Source of the DNA: a virus | IMG/VR virus record: IMGVR_UViG_3300009183_004297 | Span: 6,719-70,718 of that record | Strand: one strand, 5' to 3' | DNA length: 64,000 bases | Shown: positions 6,669 through 64,000 of the stretch, piece by piece | Layout of the letters: each line of letters begins with the position of its first letter | How positions within the stretch are numbered: the first letter of the stretch is position 1 | The notes under the pieces: model-generated | The model's input: the letters and a program-made list of their open reading frames with translations, nothing else | Databases searched by the model: none | What the model was told of the DNA's origin: nothing | Program-made: the position numbers and the translations under genes

Positions 6669-6938
6669 TTACACTTCAATTATCAGTCCGGACAACATAC
6701 GGTCATTGACTGTGACATTGTCCACAGTAAACGAACCTGACAACGACTGTAGATCCACAACATAGGTGCCGGGATTGAGATTCAAGATCATTTGTTCTTG
6801 GATGTATTTTTCTTCGTGTTCCCAAATGAAATCTCTTTCGGCTACCAATTCATTTGCTACCATCAAACGATATGCGGCTTTGTTACCCAGCTTTTTTGTG
6901 CAATGCACATCCAGTGTAACTCGAAATTTTTGTGTCAT
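6669..6938 (-). CDS. Hypothetical small beta-rich protein
   Basis: 89 aa ORF with ATGA coupling. Confidence 0.65.
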   Translation of the reverse strand: MTQKFRVTLDVHCTKKLGNKAAYRLMVANELVAERDFIWEHEEKYIQEQMILNLNPGTYVVDLQSLSGSFTVDNVTVNDRMLSGLIIEV

Positions 6939-10399: not shown

Positions 10400-11122
10400 T
10401 TATTTATCTTCAGCTAAACAACGGAATTCATCAATTGATCTAATAAAATGTGGATTGATCATCTTTATCATTGTGGCAATTCCTGCATCATGAGCATAGA
10501 TATAACTACCCCAGATATACCGACTTTTAGCTTCGCCTAGTGACTCTCTGAGACTCTGTGGTAAATGTACTTCATCTCCAAGCGCCGCAAGATAGGCCAA
10601 CAACTGTTCTTTACTTTCTGTGGAGTATTTTGCTTCTCTAGTGTTGAATCTGTATTGCCATTTGCTGGGCTTGGCTGTTAGTACATAGCCTTTGGCCAGC
10701 ATGTTTGCGCCATCTTGATTTTCGGGCACACAGACTGAACGCAAGTATGAAGCATCAAGTTTGGACGCAATAGACTTCATGACATTGAGATCATTGGTAT
10801 ACAGTTGCATCATTGGATCTTCAATGCGTTTTTTAACATCTGTATCGTAGTCGGGCAGGATGTTTTCTAAAGATTCAACAAACGCACGTTCTTGAAAGGT
10901 TGGTACAGGTGAACGGTCGCCGCGCCAGCTACCGCCGTAGTTTATTTGTCTGCGTTTTTCACGGTCTTGGCAATAGGCCATCATGGATGAAAATCCACCT
11001 CGCAAGTATGCCACACCTGTGCAATGCAGTTCTAATCGATAGGCATACTTACCAAAGAATAACTTGGTAGTATGCTGTATCTTAAGATTAGGATTTAACG
11101 ACGTCCAGAACAATGTATCCAT
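10400..11122 (-). CDS. Hypothetical phage protein
   Basis: Long ORF; probable start MDTLFW overlaps the end of clpA. Confidence 0.65.
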   Translation of the reverse strand: MDTLFWTSLNPNLKIQHTTKLFFGKYAYRLELHCTGVAYLRGGFSSMMAYCQDREKRRQINYGGSWRGDRSPVPTFQERAFVESLENILPDYDTDVKKRIEDPMMQLYTNDLNVMKSIASKLDASYLRSVCVPENQDGANMLAKGYVLTAKPSKWQYRFNTREAKYSTESKEQLLAYLAALGDEVHLPQSLRESLGEAKSRYIWGSYIYAHDAGIATMIKMINPHFIRSIDEFRCLAEDK

Positions 11123-17727: not shown

Positions 17728-18238
17728 TTTGACTTTCCTCGTTTTTGTATACATCATCATCGGCACCGGTTTCGTAGGCTGTTTCAATATCCTCGGCGCT
17801 GAGTTTTTCGTTTTCTAATTCAACACTGCCGCGATGAATTTCTTGCATGAGTTCTTTGGGCATGACTATTTCTACCAGCCATATGGGACTTTTGCCTAGC
17901 TTGGGCATTTTGCTACCAGGTTCATAGTCTTCAGGGCCTTTGACTTTGATTGGGAAATGCAGGTAATCTTTTTTGTAACGCACAGCACAGTCGTAGTCTA
18001 GTAACCGCTCGCCGCCACGTGGATCTGGCATTTTTTTGTGTGGCCACATAAAAGTACAAGTGACAAAGTACTTTTCGTACACTGGGCCTTCCACTAGCTC
18101 GCCATCTTTCCAGTGTGCAAAAGCATAAAGGTCCAATTCGTCTAGGACCCGTTCAAAATCCAGCAGGGTGTCCAAAGCACTATCTGTCATATAGATATCT
18201 TTGGTGTTTGTAATTATGTCGTGTAAACTAGCAGGCAT
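17669..18238 (-). CDS. Hypothetical phage protein
   Basis: LLDFERVLDELDLY..W..GE..GP, MPDPRGG; TAAATA upstream. Confidence 0.7.
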   Translation of the reverse strand: MPASLHDIITNTKDIYMTDSALDTLLDFERVLDELDLYAFAHWKDGELVEGPVYEKYFVTCTFMWPHKKMPDPRGGERLLDYDCAVRYKKDYLHFPIKVKGPEDYEPGSKMPKLGKSPIWLVEIVMPKELMQEIHRGSVELENEKLSAEDIETAYETGADDDVYKNEESQNAEPQPGAPPAPVPAPAPV

Positions 18239-18430
18239 GATCCGTTCCGTTTAAGTTATTTATCACCCAACCGGATCATAAGGATAAGAGCAAGAGTGCC
18301 CAGGACAGCTTAATACTTATGATAGATTTTGGGCAAATTTAATGGGTGTTTGTACCTGGTTCAGCATCGCCTAAATATTTGCGTGGACCATCACAAACAA
18401 CCACTTAACATTACCCAAGGAGAATGCAAT

Positions 18431-52945: not shown

Positions 52946-53167
52946 TTATTTATTACGATAGATCACTCGTCCTTTGGTCAAATCGTATGGACTCATTTCT
53001 ACATCCACTCGATCTCCTAACAGGATTTTAATTGCATTCTGTCTAAGTTTGCCCCCTGTATAGGCAATGATTTTATGCTTGGACTCATCTAATTCAACAC
53101 GGAATGTAGCATTGGGCAACACTTCGTAAACGACCCCTGAACTGCGTAGGGATTCTTCTTTGGCCAC
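52946..53167 (-). CDS. infA: Translation initiation factor IF-1
   Basis: [19 protein letters not shown]...[21 protein letters not shown]. Confidence 0.95.
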
Positions 53168-59593: not shown

Positions 59594-59649
59594 AGCGTAA
59601 ATTGTAGCAGGTCTGCGGCTAAATAACAATATTAAAGGATAAATTTGTT

Positions 59650-60078
59650 ATGCTAAAATCAGTACTGACATATACCAAAACTGGAAACACCACTTGGGAC
59701 TATTTCTTAGACCCTAGCACTTTGCCTGCTGATAATCCTATGTTTGAAACATGGAAACAAGTTTGGCTAATGATGTATGGCACTGAAACTAAAACACTTT
59801 TTCCCGGAGTAACTTGGGAGTTTGAAGTGATATCAGCACAAGAATTAAAATGCCATCAAACAATAATAGATGTTGAGACTCTTGATGCTTGGATAAGTTA
59901 CATTACATCTTGTGATCTTAGTCCTGCAACGGATATTCATACGGTATTCGAAATCATGTATCCAGGAGAGTCACTGTCACAAACATTGGAGATCATCCAA
60001 GCACCTGTTAATATACAGGATTCTACTGCATACCAATGGGTAAACGAAGATCCTAACGTTGCTGTAATACAAAACTAA
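59650..60078 (+). CDS. Hypothetical acidic protein
   Basis: 142 aa; TAAATA and AAGGA upstream; terminator downstream. Confidence 0.65.
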   Translation: MLKSVLTYTKTGNTTWDYFLDPSTLPADNPMFETWKQVWLMMYGTETKTLFPGVTWEFEVISAQELKCHQTIIDVETLDAWISYITSCDLSPATDIHTVFEIMYPGESLSQTLEIIQAPVNIQDSTAYQWVNEDPNVAVIQN

Positions 60079-60101
60079 AAACCGCCCGAAGGCGGTTTTT
60101 T
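60077..60101. terminator. Bidirectional rho-independent terminator
   Basis: AAAAACCGCC-cgaa-GGCGGTTTTTT between convergent genes. Confidence 0.85.
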
Positions 60102-60118
60102 ATTGAACTTGTAAATTA

Positions 60119-60685
60119 TTAAAATCTACGTGAGTATGCCAGCCACACAGTATTGGTGTCCATGTCACCTCGGATCCAGTCCTGGCGAATAGCAATCGAG
60201 TCCTTGGCTGTGACATCATAACCCAGTTGTACTCGTGTCATACGAATATCCAGCGCACTTGTATTGATACCAGTGGCTACGGTGTAGTCTGGTTTGACCC
60301 AAAAGTTCGTACCAGGCACACGAGCCACTGCACCAACTTCCACGCCACCATATGTCATGGTAGCTACCTTGCTGACTTCAATTGCGCCCATGCCCAATCG
60401 TACATAAGGCGTAACAGGTGAACTGTTTAGGAATCGATATCCTGCACCAACTTCATACTGATTGGTGATGCTGAGTGTTGAACTGTTGCGACTAGGTGAA
60501 ACCATGACATCAACAAATACATCTTTCTTGTCAGTAACATCAAACACACCTTTAACAATGTAAGTGGTCGAGTCAACGTCTGTGGTGTTATTTTTGTTGC
60601 TGTTTGGTGCAACCCCAATAATAACAGAATCAGCCTGGGCAATTCCTGCCACAAGAGCAAAGCATAGTGCTAGTAGTTTTTTCAT
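60119..60685 (-). CDS. Outer-membrane beta-barrel protein with signal peptide
   Basis: True start MKKLLALCFALVAGIAQA after AGGAGA; amphipathic strands (VGAGYRF, QLGYDV); C-terminal aromatic (AYSRRF). Confidence 0.75.
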   Translation of the reverse strand: MKKLLALCFALVAGIAQADSVIIGVAPNSNKNNTTDVDSTTYIVKGVFDVTDKKDVFVDVMVSPSRNSSTLSITNQYEVGAGYRFLNSSPVTPYVRLGMGAIEVSKVATMTYGGVEVGAVARVPGTNFWVKPDYTVATGINTSALDIRMTRVQLGYDVTAKDSIAIRQDWIRGDMDTNTVWLAYSRRF

Positions 60686-60716
60686 TTTATATCTCCTAAA
60701 GTTAATGAAATATTTA

Positions 60717-60934
60717 GGACTGGGTAGAGCAAGTTGCGGGCTGGACAATTGACAATGGTCAATATGCAACAGATAATCCACAGAGGACCTAGTATGACTG
60801 GTAGCAATGCACAAATCGCAATATGTTAGCCAGTAGCATTAGGTCACGAACCTTGTTCAGAGGTTGGAGTTAAGTTCCAGTATCATTGGTTAGAATGAAC
60901 TAGATGGTGCCTGCTCTCATCTCTCTACTCGTCC
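60717..60934 (-). ncRNA. Candidate ~220-nt multi-stem structured RNA
   Basis: 5' GGAC-GAGTAGAG pairs with 3' CTCTACCC-A-GTCC; inner GCAGGC/GCCCGC; hairpins CTAGTTCATT/AATGATACTGG, AACCT/AGGTT, GACCTA..ACTGG/CCAGT..TAGGTC and TGGAT/GTCCA. Confidence 0.7.
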
Positions 60935-60936
60935 AC

Positions 60937-60958
60937 GGACCTGGCCGAAGCCAGACCC
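60937..60958 (-). other. cUUCGg tetraloop hairpin between the stop codon and the RNA
   Basis: GGGTCTGGC-TTCG-GCCAGGTCC with no U tract. Confidence 0.7.
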
Positions 60959-61531
60959 TTAAACCAAATTTTCTCGTTGCAGAATTTCAATTACTTCTGC
61001 GCTCAGTTCAATTTCTGTACGCACGTTCAATTCCAAAATTTCGTCATTGATACGTTGCTTTTGTTTTTTCATGTCACGCAAGACCACTTTGATTTGGTCC
61101 AAGGCTTCACGTGGCAACACGCCAGTTGTGACATCATCGTGGTGACCGTAAAGGCTCGCACGACTGTCCGCTGGACGAGTTTTGATCTTTTCCAGCTTGC
61201 CCTTGATCACTTCAATGTCATCGCGATTTTCAGCTGATGCAAACACGCCCAGTTGCTCAATGCGCTTGTCGGTATAGGCCGCACGTGCCAAGCGATCTGC
61301 CACACCACTTTGTGCGTTGGCAATGTTTACCTGCGCACGAATGCTGTACAATGCAACCAACAGGTCATTGCGACGACTGTCTGCAATCATCACTTCCTCG
61401 GCCTTTTGATTCAACACTGTTTCTGGTGTTTGGAATTCGTTGATTTTCACTTCCAAGTTCACTGTGATACCGCGCATGGTTTCTTGGATGGAGTTTTGTA
61501 GAGCTGATGATTTACGTAGATTGATTTTCAT
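60959..61531 (-). CDS. All-helical coiled-coil protein, DIP1984/DUF6847-like by recall
   Basis: MKINLRKSSALQ..., LYSIRAQVNIAN, KQKQRINDEILELNVRTEIEL; family match unverified. Confidence 0.7.
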   Translation of the reverse strand: MKINLRKSSALQNSIQETMRGITVNLEVKINEFQTPETVLNQKAEEVMIADSRRNDLLVALYSIRAQVNIANAQSGVADRLARAAYTDKRIEQLGVFASAENRDDIEVIKGKLEKIKTRPADSRASLYGHHDDVTTGVLPREALDQIKVVLRDMKKQKQRINDEILELNVRTEIELSAEVIEILQRENLV

Positions 61532-61552
61532 TTGTATTTCCTTGACTATAGT

Positions 61553-61581
61553 ATTTTATACGATTGACCTCGCAAGGTCAA
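61553..61581 (-). promoter_or_regulatory. Sigma70-like promoter with a palindrome over the -35
   Basis: TTGACC-17nt-TAAAAT; inverted repeat TTGACCT-N4-AGGTCAA at 61564-61581. Confidence 0.55.
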
Positions 61582-61591
61582 CCTTTCTGGC

Positions 61592-62413
61592 TCAAATTTC
61601 AAACCCAACTGTGGGATCAAAAATGTTTGCTTGTGTTTCGTATCCCCTGTAGCCACGTGGGTTACAGATCACACGGCACTGCCCAATCATGTAGTCACTT
61701 GGGTCATGCATGTGCCCGTGTGTCCAAAACAGCACGTTTTCGTGATCCAAGATAAACTCACTTAGGTCACTGGCATATCCACCGTTCATGTCCACATCGT
61801 GCCGGTAGTGCTCATGCACACTTTGATAGCTGGGCGCATGATGCGTACACACCACAATCTTCCGGTCGCGATTCAATTCCAATATGGTCTTGAAGTACTC
61901 CTTGGTACGCATGTGAGTTTCCATGGTATCTTGCGGAGTCAGCTTGCGATAGATAGGTCCTGCCTTGTTGGTGATAGCACGGTAGTCATTCATACCATGC
62001 TTGAGCACCTGCACACACATGGGATTACCCTTGTTGCAGTCAGTCCACAGTGTAGCACCCAAGAATATCACACCGTCAATTTCAACGTGTTCGTTTTCCA
62101 ACACTGTCACATTGTCCGGCACAGTGGCCTTGAGCTCATGCACAGTCTTGTCGTAGCGTCCGTGATAGTGTTCGTGATTGCCCATAACATAGATAACTTC
62201 GCGGTACTTGGCACATTCTTCATGGAAGAAACGCTGAGCACGATCCATACGTTTGAGATCGCCTACATCAGTCATGATGTTCATTGGGTCATACTTGTAC
62301 TTGGTCAGGGTGCGGCTTTCGCACACATCACCTGACAAAATCAGCACGTCTCCGCCTGGCAACTCTAGGTCGCCAAACTCAAGATGCAGGTCTGATATAA
62401 CATTAATTTTCAT
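61592..62413 (-). CDS. Calcineurin-like metallophosphoesterase
   Basis: SDLH, SGD, GNHE, THHAP, HGHMH motifs. Confidence 0.9.
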   Translation of the reverse strand: MKINVISDLHLEFGDLELPGGDVLILSGDVCESRTLTKYKYDPMNIMTDVGDLKRMDRAQRFFHEECAKYREVIYVMGNHEHYHGRYDKTVHELKATVPDNVTVLENEHVEIDGVIFLGATLWTDCNKGNPMCVQVLKHGMNDYRAITNKAGPIYRKLTPQDTMETHMRTKEYFKTILELNRDRKIVVCTHHAPSYQSVHEHYRHDVDMNGGYASDLSEFILDHENVLFWTHGHMHDPSDYMIGQCRVICNPRGYRGYETQANIFDPTVGFEI

Positions 62414-62419
62414 AACGCA

Positions 62420-62448
62420 ATTATAGCATGAGACCATGGTCTGGTCAA
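62420..62448 (-). promoter_or_regulatory. Sigma70 promoter, leaderless geometry, palindromic spacer
   Basis: TTGACC-17nt-TATAAT; spacer contains AGACCATGGTCT; ATG at 62413. Confidence 0.65.
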
Positions 62449-62449
62449 G

Positions 62450-62474
62450 AAAAAAGGTGCCCTAAAGCACCTTT
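62450..62474 (-). terminator. Rho-independent terminator
   Basis: AAAGGTGC-loop-GCACCTTTTTT on the minus strand. Confidence 0.7.
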
Positions 62475-62491
62475 GATTAGTCCAAAATCAA

Positions 62492-62788
62492 TTAGACTGT
62501 GATGCCCAAAGACTGAGCGCGGTATGCGAGCGCAACCATTTTGCGGCTGGCTTCGCCATGACGGTATTCAGTTACCTGAACGCCATTGCCTGCTTTACGA
62601 GCCTTGGCATAAACTGCATAACCACGGTTACGAATAACGCTGATGGTAGCAGTTGGATTAGCGATGCTAAAACGCTTTTGGATTTGTGCTTCGCTCAGAA
62701 CCTCTCCATCCAAGACCAAGGCCTTGAATAGTTTACCTTGCTTGGTAGTAAGGTCAAAATTGCGGATTGCTTTAGTTTGATGTTTCAT
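62492..62788 (-). CDS. Winged helix-turn-helix-like DNA-binding protein
   Basis: LSEAQIQKRFSIANPTATISVIRNRGYAVY. Confidence 0.65.
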   Translation of the reverse strand: MKHQTKAIRNFDLTTKQGKLFKALVLDGEVLSEAQIQKRFSIANPTATISVIRNRGYAVYAKARKAGNGVQVTEYRHGEASRKMVALAYRAQSLGITV

Positions 62789-63712: not shown

Positions 63713-63895
63713 TTACTCAGTTACTTCGTTGACAGCTTTTTTACTCAAACTCCAACTACCGTTGCCCTGATCTGTCCATGTGAGCACATCGCCTTCTTTC
63801 CAGCCCACTTGAGTCAGCATTTCAGGAGGAAACTCCAGAATACAATCGCCAGTAGCTGGATCCTCTTGTAGTTCCACGGTCCATGAAGTTTTCAT
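63713..63895 (-). CDS. AbrB/SpoVT-like small DNA-binding protein
   Basis: ILEFPPEML..VGWKEGDVLTW. Confidence 0.6.
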   Translation of the reverse strand: MKTSWTVELQEDPATGDCILEFPPEMLTQVGWKEGDVLTWTDQGNGSWSLSKKAVNEVTE

Positions 63896-64000
63896 TTGCA
63901 CACCTTTGCAATTTCATCTGCTGGCATACTGGCACGGATAGCTTCAATGCGGCACTGACCTTTTTGATATTGATCAAGAGCCAGGCCAGCAAAAGGAATA

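Follow-up and report, generated by a model that had tools for sequence, protein, structure and literature searches.

A structured RNA family and its neighbouring helical-protein gene in the tRNA islands of jumbo phages

What does a jumbo phage keep in a gap between two genes where no reading frame is found, and does it belong to the gene before it? The question is raised by a stretch of 64,000 nucleotides (nt) of the IMG/VR virus record IMGVR_UViG_3300009183_004297 (positions 6,719 to 70,718 of that record; hereafter the window, in whose positions all coordinates are given unless a locus is named), where the gene of a 190-amino-acid (aa) coiled-coil protein on the minus strand is followed by an intergenic gap of 273 nt (60958-60686, -; from the list of open reading frames (ORFs), the start of the next gene being taken as the ATG at 60685). 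An earlier note on this DNA had proposed that the gap encodes a structured RNA which forms a two-component system with the protein. In this study, the structured RNA downstream of the coiled-coil gene is confirmed, with an extent of about 230 nt, by covariance model matches and by covariation in 86 copies, and the region 60716-60951 (-) is a gene for a structured non-coding RNA. It very probably represents a real, expressed and new RNA family coupled to the 190-aa gene, and its description as a previously undescribed family of stable, structured non-coding RNAs of ~230-270 nt is well supported. The best explanation overall, to which we would give an even chance, is that this RNA is co-transcribed with the protein and works with it as a ribonucleoprotein.

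The RNA, its fold and its transcripts

The RNA core and the parts of its fold lie on the minus strand as follows.

60716-60940, minus: RNA core, matched by the covariance model R1 at 117.8 bits, E 1.8e-33
60937-60958, minus: P0, 5' hairpin GGGUCUGGC-UUCG-GCCAGGUCC (cUUCGg), after the protein stop codon and without a U tract
60934-60931 with 60720-60717, minus: outer stem GGAC/GUCC, just outside P1
60721-60931, minus: P1, closing helix, 60930-60923 pairing with 60722-60729; GAGUAGAG (60930-60923) with CUCUAC (60729-60724)
60916-60922, minus: junction motif AGAUGAG, AGA followed by the UGAG that opens P2, in invariant alignment columns
60730-60919, minus: P2, 60919-60909 pairing with 60730-60741, including GCAGGC (60914-60909) and GCCCGC (60741-60736)
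60877-60903, minus: P3, sequence-variable hairpin (helices 3 and 4)
60849-60865, minus: P4, hairpin with a 5-bp stem and the 7-nt loop CUGAACA, in most relatives CUUGAAA (helix 5)
60785-60847, minus: P5, long bipartite hairpin preceded by a conserved CGUG (helices 6 and 7)
60742-60769, minus: array of the heptads UUGCAUA, UUGACCA, UUGUCAA and UUGUCCA, predicted single-stranded

The features that the earlier note had listed, namely the cUUCGg hairpin without a U tract, the pairing of the ends, the GCAGGC/GCCCGC stem and the internal hairpins, are all present on this strand. Compensatory changes among 86 distinct homologues preserve its outer stem (P1), its second stem (P2) and three of the hairpins, which are set around a multibranch core. 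For the covariation test these 86 copies were aligned to R1, a model of 240 positions and 59 pairs, and compared with 500 shuffles. Pair cells were paired in 90.2% of cases versus 69.6% after shuffling, double changes occurred in 49 of the 59 pairs (42.1 shuffled) and in 921 cells (282 shuffled), and none of the 500 shuffles matched any observed measure; these figures are not probabilities, as alignments fitted to the model structure favour pairing and related sequences inflate the counts relative to shuffles. When partners were slid by 1-3 columns, 35-46% of cells paired, and the first locus set alone (see below) gave the same picture.

Helix by helix, P1 (helix 1) has all 9 of its 9 pairs changed on both sides with 99.0% of cells paired, P2 (helix 2) has 6 of 11 changed with 96.8% paired, P4 (helix 5) has 5 of 5 with 92.3%, and P5 (helices 6 and 7) has 13 of 16, with 97.2% of cells paired in its lower part and 89.8% in the other; P1, P2, P4 and both parts of P5 are thus very well supported. 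In the P3 stems, 78.0% (helix 3) and 84.8% (helix 4) of cells are paired and each of the 9 pairs is changed on both sides; these stems are supported, their alignment being less clean. In the alignment, P0 corresponds to a small 5' hairpin which covaries and stands ahead of the fold throughout the family, with GNRA loops in relatives, and so belongs to the RNA unit rather than serving as a terminator of the protein gene. G-U pairs make up 15.3% of cells, and pairing drops to 77.9% when the opposite strand is read, and the two figures indicate that RNA and protein gene are read from one and the same strand; the opposite strand was ruled out as the RNA strand by this G-U count despite its better single-sequence fold (z -2.9). 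The lengths of the elements are spread evenly over the three remainders modulo 3 (28/30/28), which fits a non-coding element.

The best-conserved single-stranded letters of the family are the AGAUGAG junction, the CGUG before P5 and the UUG triplets spaced by 7 nt. The triplets are among the invariant positions and form an array of four to seven UUGNNNN heptads, predicted to be single-stranded; among the 86 copies the spacing is exactly 7 in 233 of 373 consecutive UUG pairs, with a median of 3 per element versus 0.06 after shuffling. The repeat finder TRF reports the array in the window with a period of 7 and 3.1 copies (60742-60763). Two further pairings were considered and dropped: a pseudoknot between 5' ACCGG and 3' UCCGG, judged by eye, where the 3' side reads CCAG in the window and in the related loci L044 and L006 with no compensating change on the 5' side, and a long-range ACAA/UUGU pairing from RNAalifold whose 3' side is invariant. 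Some resemblances looked at by eye, of the P4 loop to an anticodon loop, of the heptads to -35 boxes or RNase E sites and of CCUCU to the anti-Shine-Dalgarno sequence, found no support and are not put forward as claims. The heptad region also carries, on the plus strand and antisense to the RNA, a near-consensus promoter-like site TTGACA-17-GATAAT (60749-60777, 11 of 12 positions); this site is probably a side effect of the UUGUCAA units, and by eye it is not conserved in the main family.

The Rfam scan that the earlier note had called for matched the element to no known family. With Rfam 15 (4227 models, including GOLLD, ROOL, 6S, RNase P, SRP and riboswitches), the whole window gave 0 matches at gathering score; at E<=10 the region 60500-61700 gave only a 22-nt snoRNA-like chance match outside the element, and at E<=1 the elements of three related loci (L056, L289 and L294) gave no match to the element. 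RNase P, 6S, SRP and Y-RNA-like identities are ruled out by the absence of any Rfam match. ARAGORN found no tRNA or tmRNA within the window and only tRNAs in related loci. In the literature and in Rfam we found no description of the RNA or of the RNA-protein pair; a sub-motif may be among the 8,495 RNA candidates from IMG/VR (29-151 nt) of Fremin et al. (2023; PMC10690425).

The element is present with 0 mismatches in four lake or freshwater metatranscriptome runs from four studies, in the following assembled contigs.

X4: 60720-60951
X12: 60720-60950
X11: 60696-60950
X5: 60720-61052, with an adapter-like loose end at 60720

An end at 60720 is shared by three runs, and three runs start at 60950 or 60951, inside P0; these are assembled contigs, not reads, and carry no strand, level or true ends, and RNA libraries can contain DNA. 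X11 and X12, of the 2.9 kb compared, cover only parts within 60696-60950, and in a third run the contig of the element has the highest word depth. The region 59600-60084 has no contig cover in any of the four runs; neither this nor the lack of cover outside 60696-60950 in X11 and X12 is evidence of silence. The shared ends give a moderate hint that a discrete RNA of ~231 nt (231-232 nt; 60951/60950 to 60720) is released in this phage.

Linkage to the protein gene and the tRNA island

Is the RNA tied to the 190-aa protein gene, or does it merely lie beside it here? The search of viral contigs with the single protein of the window found no relative, so that an alignment was needed as query, and two distant single proteins used as queries (P0268 and P0262) found nothing in viral contigs; distant-mode blastn of 60000-62500 against the phage collection gave no match. 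Two sets of loci were then compared, the first comprising 80 viral loci with protein relatives at 46-56% identity (81 with the window), the second comprising 80 loci ranked on a more distant family member. On the first set, nhmmer with the 273 nt of the window alone found a homologous stretch in 49 of 80 loci (E < 0.1), a profile search detected a single copy per locus in all 80 and in the window, and R1 gave one match in each of 81/81, on the same strand as the gene, five of the matches being cut by contig ends. On the second set R1 matched 79 of 80 loci; in the one exception, L140, no more than 39 nt precede the gene. Among genomes with a completeness rating of 98-100% (353-374 kb), five out of five hold exactly one copy of the RNA.

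The linkage also appears from the side of the RNA. Searching by DNA pattern alone, the true element was found in 52 of 80 listed loci. In 48 of the 52 the protein gene is its direct neighbour on the strand of the element, and the remaining four elements are placed at the edges of their loci; in one of these, L193, the protein gene was found upstream once more of the record was read. On a distant branch reached through the protein of Brevundimonas phages, 8 of 10 loci have an R1 match 22-123 nt beyond the gene (E 1.4e-7 to 0.05), several of the matches being weak singly (E 0.0005-0.05). A search of prokaryote genomes of 185,579 species gave a single match to the protein, on an 11-kb contig of a metagenome-assembled genome (MAG) full of tRNA genes, where R1 matches 37 nt after the gene with 63.9 bits. 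The RNA thus stands beside the protein gene, in either order, wherever the sequence extends far enough to judge, and once per genome; strict co-occurrence and adjacency of the two genes are found down to protein identities of 23-35%. The pair is a single-copy, vertically conserved part of a phage tRNA island and not a mobile cassette. As a separate observation, the locus L071 holds a second, diverged copy of the protein gene (L071:2-541, +; 44% identity to residues 11-190 of the window protein), ~1.7 kb upstream of the RNA.

The earlier note had suggested looking downstream of homologues of the protein gene; the element is indeed found beside them, but in most of them it stands upstream of the gene and not downstream. 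In 79 of the 80 loci of the first set it precedes the gene, with 23-80 nt to the ATG, or 230-330 nt when a 75-aa ORF lies between. The RNA follows the gene in the window, in its closest syntenic relative (L004), in the L180 group, in L287, in the 8 distant loci and in the MAG contig (L299). The gene 3' of the RNA varies and may be the helical protein gene, an omega-like gene, an outer-membrane-like gene (window) or a member of the family c135 (L004), and tRNA genes follow the RNA in L290-L294 and L299. The claim that the RNA goes with the upstream gene and is not simply the leader of the next one therefore stands, on the grounds of the common strand, the permuted order and the variety of downstream genes and tRNAs.

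A sigma70 consensus promoter of the form TTGACN-N16-18-TANA[AC]T is found in 45 of 81 distinct upstream contexts, where it ends 24-30 nt before the start of the model, and 29 of those 45 contexts carry the exact TTGACA-N17-TATAAT; in relatives the -10 box is followed by a GTTTTG leader and then by the small 5' hairpin. Two loci, L012 and L044, have no such promoter, and there the 3' end of a tRNA-Asn, ~8-10 nt before the leader of the element, runs directly into this GTTTTG leader. From these arrangements, one promoter appears to serve both genes in either order. In L299 a tRNA-Val starts 7 nt after the element, and in L056 there are 14 tRNAs before the pair and 3 after it, so that in relatives the element lies within a tRNA array and is directly flanked by tRNA genes; the window itself is without tRNA. 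One of these arrays (L292:3088-3162, +) also includes an ARAGORN tRNA with anticodon CTA (labelled Pyl), a candidate amber suppressor.

The Rfam family GOLLD (RF02032, 182-203 bits, with an embedded tRNA) was found within ~1 kb upstream of the pair in 5 of 15 related loci scanned, at the following places.

L294:870-1329, plus: GOLLD (Rfam RF02032)
L290:832-1295, plus: GOLLD (Rfam RF02032)
L291:562-1022, plus: GOLLD (Rfam RF02032)
L285:2259-2720, minus: GOLLD (Rfam RF02032)
L286:1940-2405, minus: GOLLD (Rfam RF02032)

Two of these five loci belong to complete jumbo phage genomes of 354-374 kb. GOLLD is separated from the element by tRNA, in 3 of the 5 also by the protein gene, and never overlaps it; in the window no GOLLD was found with Rfam at gathering score. 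An Rpb6/omega-like gene of 75 aa (PF01192, 37.9 bits versus a cut-off of 26; for example L011:2277-2504, +) occurs in 45 of 81 loci, of which 30 have it separating the RNA from the protein gene and 15 have it following the latter, and none was found in the window. A gene of IF-1 was seen in 25 of 81 loci (in 24 of the 80 relatives, at most 2.5 kb from the pair), the homologue of the window lying at 52955-53167 (-; PF01176, 77.9 bits), and 2OG-Fe(II) oxygenase genes neighbour the pair in 56 of 81 loci.

In the window, the surroundings of the RNA gene are as follows.

62437-61592, minus: metallophosphoesterase gene (PHROG 1649, E 1e-57)
61553-61581, minus: promoter-like site TTGACC-17-TAAAAT, sigma70-type, 10 of 12 consensus positions, its -35 hexamer within the palindrome TTGACCTTGCGAGGTCAA
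60959-61531, minus: gene of the 190-aa partner protein, all-helical, with a putative DIP1984/DUF6847-like fold, a predicted homodimer, isoelectric point (pI) 6.2
60715-60710, minus: TAAATA, ahead of the next gene (ATG 60685)
60119-60685, minus: following gene (188 aa), encoding a signal-peptide protein that weakly matches an outer-membrane beta-barrel family (PF13505, E 2.4e-4, below its cut-off)

The sigma70-like promoter with the palindrome TTGACCTTGCGAGGTCAA that had been noticed before the protein gene is thus present, with 10 of 12 positions, as is the TAAATA before the next gene. With 3 promoter-like sites seen in the region and 2.4 expected, the site at 61553-61581 is not significant alone, and we take it as the presumed transcript start for protein and RNA. 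The gene at 60119-60685 lies outside the RNA-protein unit; L004 is without it at that place. In comparison with L004, two additional genes (60119-60685, -, and 59650-60078, +) separate the RNA of the window from the next gene common to both, the second of them being a 142-aa ORF on the opposite strand with no family match. A 62-aa ORF at 63713-63901 (-) has a weak match to the MazE/AbrB-type antitoxin domain (PF04014, E 0.0012, below the cut-off). The gap is not the longest non-coding one in the window, as had been claimed: by a mechanical call of ORFs of at least 45 aa, ORF-free stretches of 541 nt (17788-18328) and 406 nt (10494-10899) exceed its 273 nt, and neither has a match in Rfam 15 at gathering score. 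The record itself is a 70.7-kb contig with a CheckV completeness of 20%, which implies a genome of ~350 kb; this value and the complete pair-bearing relatives of 353-374 kb support the view, already taken in the earlier note, that it is a fragment of a jumbo phage.

The partner protein and how the pair may act

Relatives of the 190-aa protein are numerous, 406 by a word-indexed search and 773 representative clusters by an exhaustive one, and nearly all are ~185-195 aa long. A likeness to DIP1984/DUF6847 proteins had been suggested, and it may hold at the level of the fold but not of the family: at E<=1 there is no match to Pfam PF20935 (DUF6847), the best matches being DUF4600 (17.8 bits) and ARM_TT21_4th, both below cut-offs. 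PHROGs, NCBIfam and PADLOC gave no family match and no toxin, nuclease or defence family. A search of PDB sequences with the family profile had 1zhc as its best match (E 0.062 over 42 residues) and no match to 3kdq, and our literature search found no paper naming 'DUF6847' or 'DIP1984'. The AF2 model (pLDDT 90.6) is almost entirely helical. Its top Foldseek match is 3kdq, a protein of Corynebacterium diphtheriae (E 0.018, probability 1.00, TM 0.41-0.51), which is also the first of 48,161 chains in VIA (Z 10.9, rmsd 6.5, 141 of 152 residues; next chain Z 9.7), where Z below ~13 is common for helical proteins; the Foldseek and VIA values of 3kdq both fall within the range of helical-bundle arrangement matches. 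In the ESM Atlas, PF20935 is found in 19-36% of the members of neighbour clusters, with TM 0.61-0.68 to a cluster of 'DIP1984 family protein'. These model comparisons make the likeness a fold-level lead rather than family membership. The homodimer model scored 0.68 versus 0.00 for the best control, with run contacts agreeing by at least 97% and a partner pLDDT of at least 88, a mark which is reached by 20 of 30 proteins solved as same-chain pairs and by 1 of 23 solved as single chains.

In a collection of cultured phages, only five records carry the protein, all of them Brevundimonas jumbo phages of 348-357 kb, at 28% identity. Two of these, Domovoi and Kabachok, have an unannotated gap of ~313 nt after the protein gene (L082:3098-3410 and L083:3098-3408, +), whose fold has z -3.84, with 0 of 200 shuffles folding equally well. 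Its layout is that of the family, with a hairpin at the 5' end, a long helix that closes the fold, a second helix, hairpins inside it and repeats in the 3' segment. The gap contains two tandem 14-nt units, UUUUUGCCCUGUGC. On the other hand, the nhmmer profile found no element in the cultured Brevundimonas phages, and R1 gave none at E<=1, the best match with filters off (E 0.072) lying at an unrelated place; the sole sequence links of the gap to L289 and L295 are 16-nt and 14-nt matches of P1 strands (E 0.007 and 0.08). The Brevundimonas phages are probably carriers, not members, and as cultured phages they may offer a laboratory system for the pair.

We propose the following course of events. 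One sigma70-type promoter, read by the host RNA polymerase, would drive both genes, standing ahead of the protein gene here and ahead of the RNA in most relatives; in some others, excision from the transcript of a tRNA array might yield the RNA instead. The RNA and the co-transcribed protein would then act as a ribonucleoprotein, in which a symmetric protein dimer may read the evenly spaced UUG triplets and the folded core may serve as scaffold. The location of the pair, in an island that also holds tRNA, IF-1 and RNA polymerase omega-like genes, hints at a part in the takeover of translation or transcription in the host. Direct binding of the 190-aa protein to the RNA falls somewhat short of an even chance; we infer it from the strict co-occurrence in both orders across 23-35% identity, from the shared promoter, and from a predicted symmetric dimer that matches even triplets. 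A more specific form of the proposal is possible but rather doubtful: a symmetric DIP1984/DUF6847-like oligomer would grip the UUG triplets of a scaffold RNA, made at high level from a consensus early promoter within the tRNA island, and would act on the translation or transcription machinery of the host, or protect and manage the phage tRNAs together with GOLLD.

Several observations weigh against the proposal of a folded RNA bound by its neighbour. The sequence of the window alone gives the RNA strand a fold not beyond chance (for the 273-nt gap z -1.5, with 14 of 200 shuffles folding equally well; for 60720-60951 z -0.19, with 83 of 200), and it is by comparison with relatives that the fold goes beyond chance. 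Helix 8 (UGUG/CACA), kept in the model, has weak support, with 75.6% of cells paired and double changes in 2 of 4 pairs, and the variable hairpin of helix 9 is weak as well (69.6%). The contig ends of the metatranscriptomes, if real, would leave P0 without its 5' strand and the outer GGAC/GUCC stem without its 3' strand. No terminator-like site was found 3' of the RNA on its strand in the window, and most relatives have a gene start at 23-80 nt from the end of the RNA, so that read-through into a long 5' leader is possible. As for the complex, adjacency and co-transcription do not demonstrate binding, the protein matches no RNA-binding family in our family scans, and with 29 K+R and 30 D+E (pI 6.2) it is not basic.

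The main rival to a ribonucleoprotein is that the RNA acts alone, as a GOLLD-like RNA-only assembly or scaffold, as a sponge or decoy for a host reader of UUG repeats, or as a partner of tRNA, the protein being an operon-mate (a processing or regulatory factor, or an unrelated early gene). We consider this possible, with a chance clearly smaller than that of the ribonucleoprotein. The position of the element within tRNA arrays fits such a role, as do the GOLLD RNAs within ~1 kb upstream in 5 of the 15 loci scanned, the acidic to neutral protein without an RNA-binding family match, and the two of four RNA libraries that cover only the RNA part of the compared stretch; in a recent preprint, GOLLD and ROOL are reported as RNA-only complexes (10.1101/2024.12.08.627333). 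However, the linkage to the protein gene (81/81 and 79/80 loci, both orders, branches at 23-35% identity) is far tighter than that to other neighbours, the omega-like, IF-1 and oxygenase genes being found in only 45, 25 and 56 of the 81 loci. A cis-acting 5' leader of the downstream gene, either a riboswitch-like sensor or an autoregulatory protein operator of the kind known from T4 gp32 and RegA, is unlikely. Such a leader would agree with the upstream position of the RNA in 79 of the 80 first-set loci, at 23-80 or 230-330 nt before the ATG, with the lack of a terminator-like site after the RNA in the window, where the RNA ends ~30 nt before the ribosome-binding site of the next gene, and with the contig X11, which continues to 60696. 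The following gene, however, has no fixed identity among loci (the protein, omega-like, outer-membrane-like and c135 genes, or tRNAs), and the RNA comes after the protein gene in the window, in L004, L287 and L299, in the L180 group and in the 8 distant loci; given such permutation and such different genes downstream, a cis-leader role is unlikely. In addition, three contigs stop at 60720, 35 nt ahead of the next ATG, and a fold of at least seven helices with its own consensus promoter is unlike known protein operators.

The earlier note had also entertained an RNA-antitoxin-like module, and for this reading little is left. A type III-like toxin-antitoxin system, in which the RNA would neutralise the protein, shares with the pair only its general shape (a small protein gene, a repeat-bearing structured RNA and one promoter), and we regard it as very improbable: there is no repeat array of antitoxin length (about 30-40 nt), only 7 nt x 3.1 at 60742-60763, Pfam, PHROGs, NCBIfam and PADLOC show no toxin, nuclease or defence match, the protein is entirely helical and predicted to dimerise, all complete genomes that were checked carry one pair each, as a fixed part of the tRNA island, and in one search the protein gene occurred in 1 of 185,579 species' genomes. 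Slightly less credible still is that the conserved feature acts as DNA, with the heptads as iterons or promoter-like TTGNNN boxes bound by a DNA-binding protein and the RNA fold incidental. The TTG-led heptads do resemble -35 boxes, the opposite strand does carry TTGACA-17-GATAAT (60749-60777, 11 of 12 positions), and the heptads taken alone could have a role in DNA. But compensatory changes keep five helices, the G-U pairs become mismatches on the other strand (90.2% vs 77.9%), the metatranscriptome contigs match the extent of the element, and, judged by eye, the main family does not keep the antisense promoter-like site.

Comparison with known systems

Few orphan RNA families of this size come with covariation helix by helix, hundreds of copies and environmental transcripts. 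The present family also supplies leads, in a constant protein-gene partner, a defined promoter, an unusual heptad array predicted to be single-stranded and a location in tRNA islands near IF-1 genes, omega-like genes and, in some phages, GOLLD. Two questions become approachable, namely the purpose of the non-tRNA RNAs in the islands of jumbo phages and the role of DIP1984/DUF6847-like proteins. If the more specific form of the ribonucleoprotein proposal is true, RNA binding would be the first function for the DUF6847/DIP1984 fold, and the purpose of the ornate RNAs in phage tRNA islands would become open to testing.

Among known RNAs, GOLLD and ROOL are likewise phage-borne, strongly covarying, multi-helix RNAs beside or within tRNA clusters. 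The present RNA differs from them in its size, which is about a third to half of theirs, in its constant protein-gene partner and in its heptad UUG array; it has no match to them in sequence or structure, and the GOLLD model matches a separate place, never the element. The stable RNAs known as species 1 and 2 of phage T4 (rnaC and rnaD) lie within the phage tRNA cluster, are made with the tRNAs and are ~120-140 nt long. They resemble the present RNA as small stable RNAs of a tRNA cluster, tRNA genes abutting the element in L012, L044 and L299, but they are shorter, are likened to it here by location and not by sequence, and are not known to have a partner gene.

Structured RNAs with adjacent or co-conserved protein partners are well known from OLE RNA and oapA, tmRNA and SmpB, and RNase P RNA and RnpA, in all of which binding is established. 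The present pair shares with them an RNA with an adjacent or co-conserved protein gene, and the same logic leads from the one to the other; the RNAs and proteins are unrelated, with no Rfam match and no ARAGORN tmRNA match, and binding would be only an analogy drawn from arrangement in our case. With regard to the heptads, HutP and TRAP read evenly spaced triplets in single-stranded RNA, in HutP UAG with 4-nt spacers, and both act as attenuators in leaders. The invariant triplets at fixed spacing in the present RNA (UUG per 7 nt) similarly suggest a symmetric oligomer with one triplet per subunit, and the partner is a predicted dimer; the protein folds and the triplet are different, so that the likeness is one of possible mode and not of family membership. 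Type III toxin-antitoxin systems of the ToxIN kind also combine a protein gene with a repeat-bearing RNA under one promoter, but the repeats here are of 7 nt versus ~36 nt and are embedded in a large fold, the protein is predicted as a helical dimer and belongs to no endoribonuclease family, and the pair belongs to a fixed core region of the phage genome.

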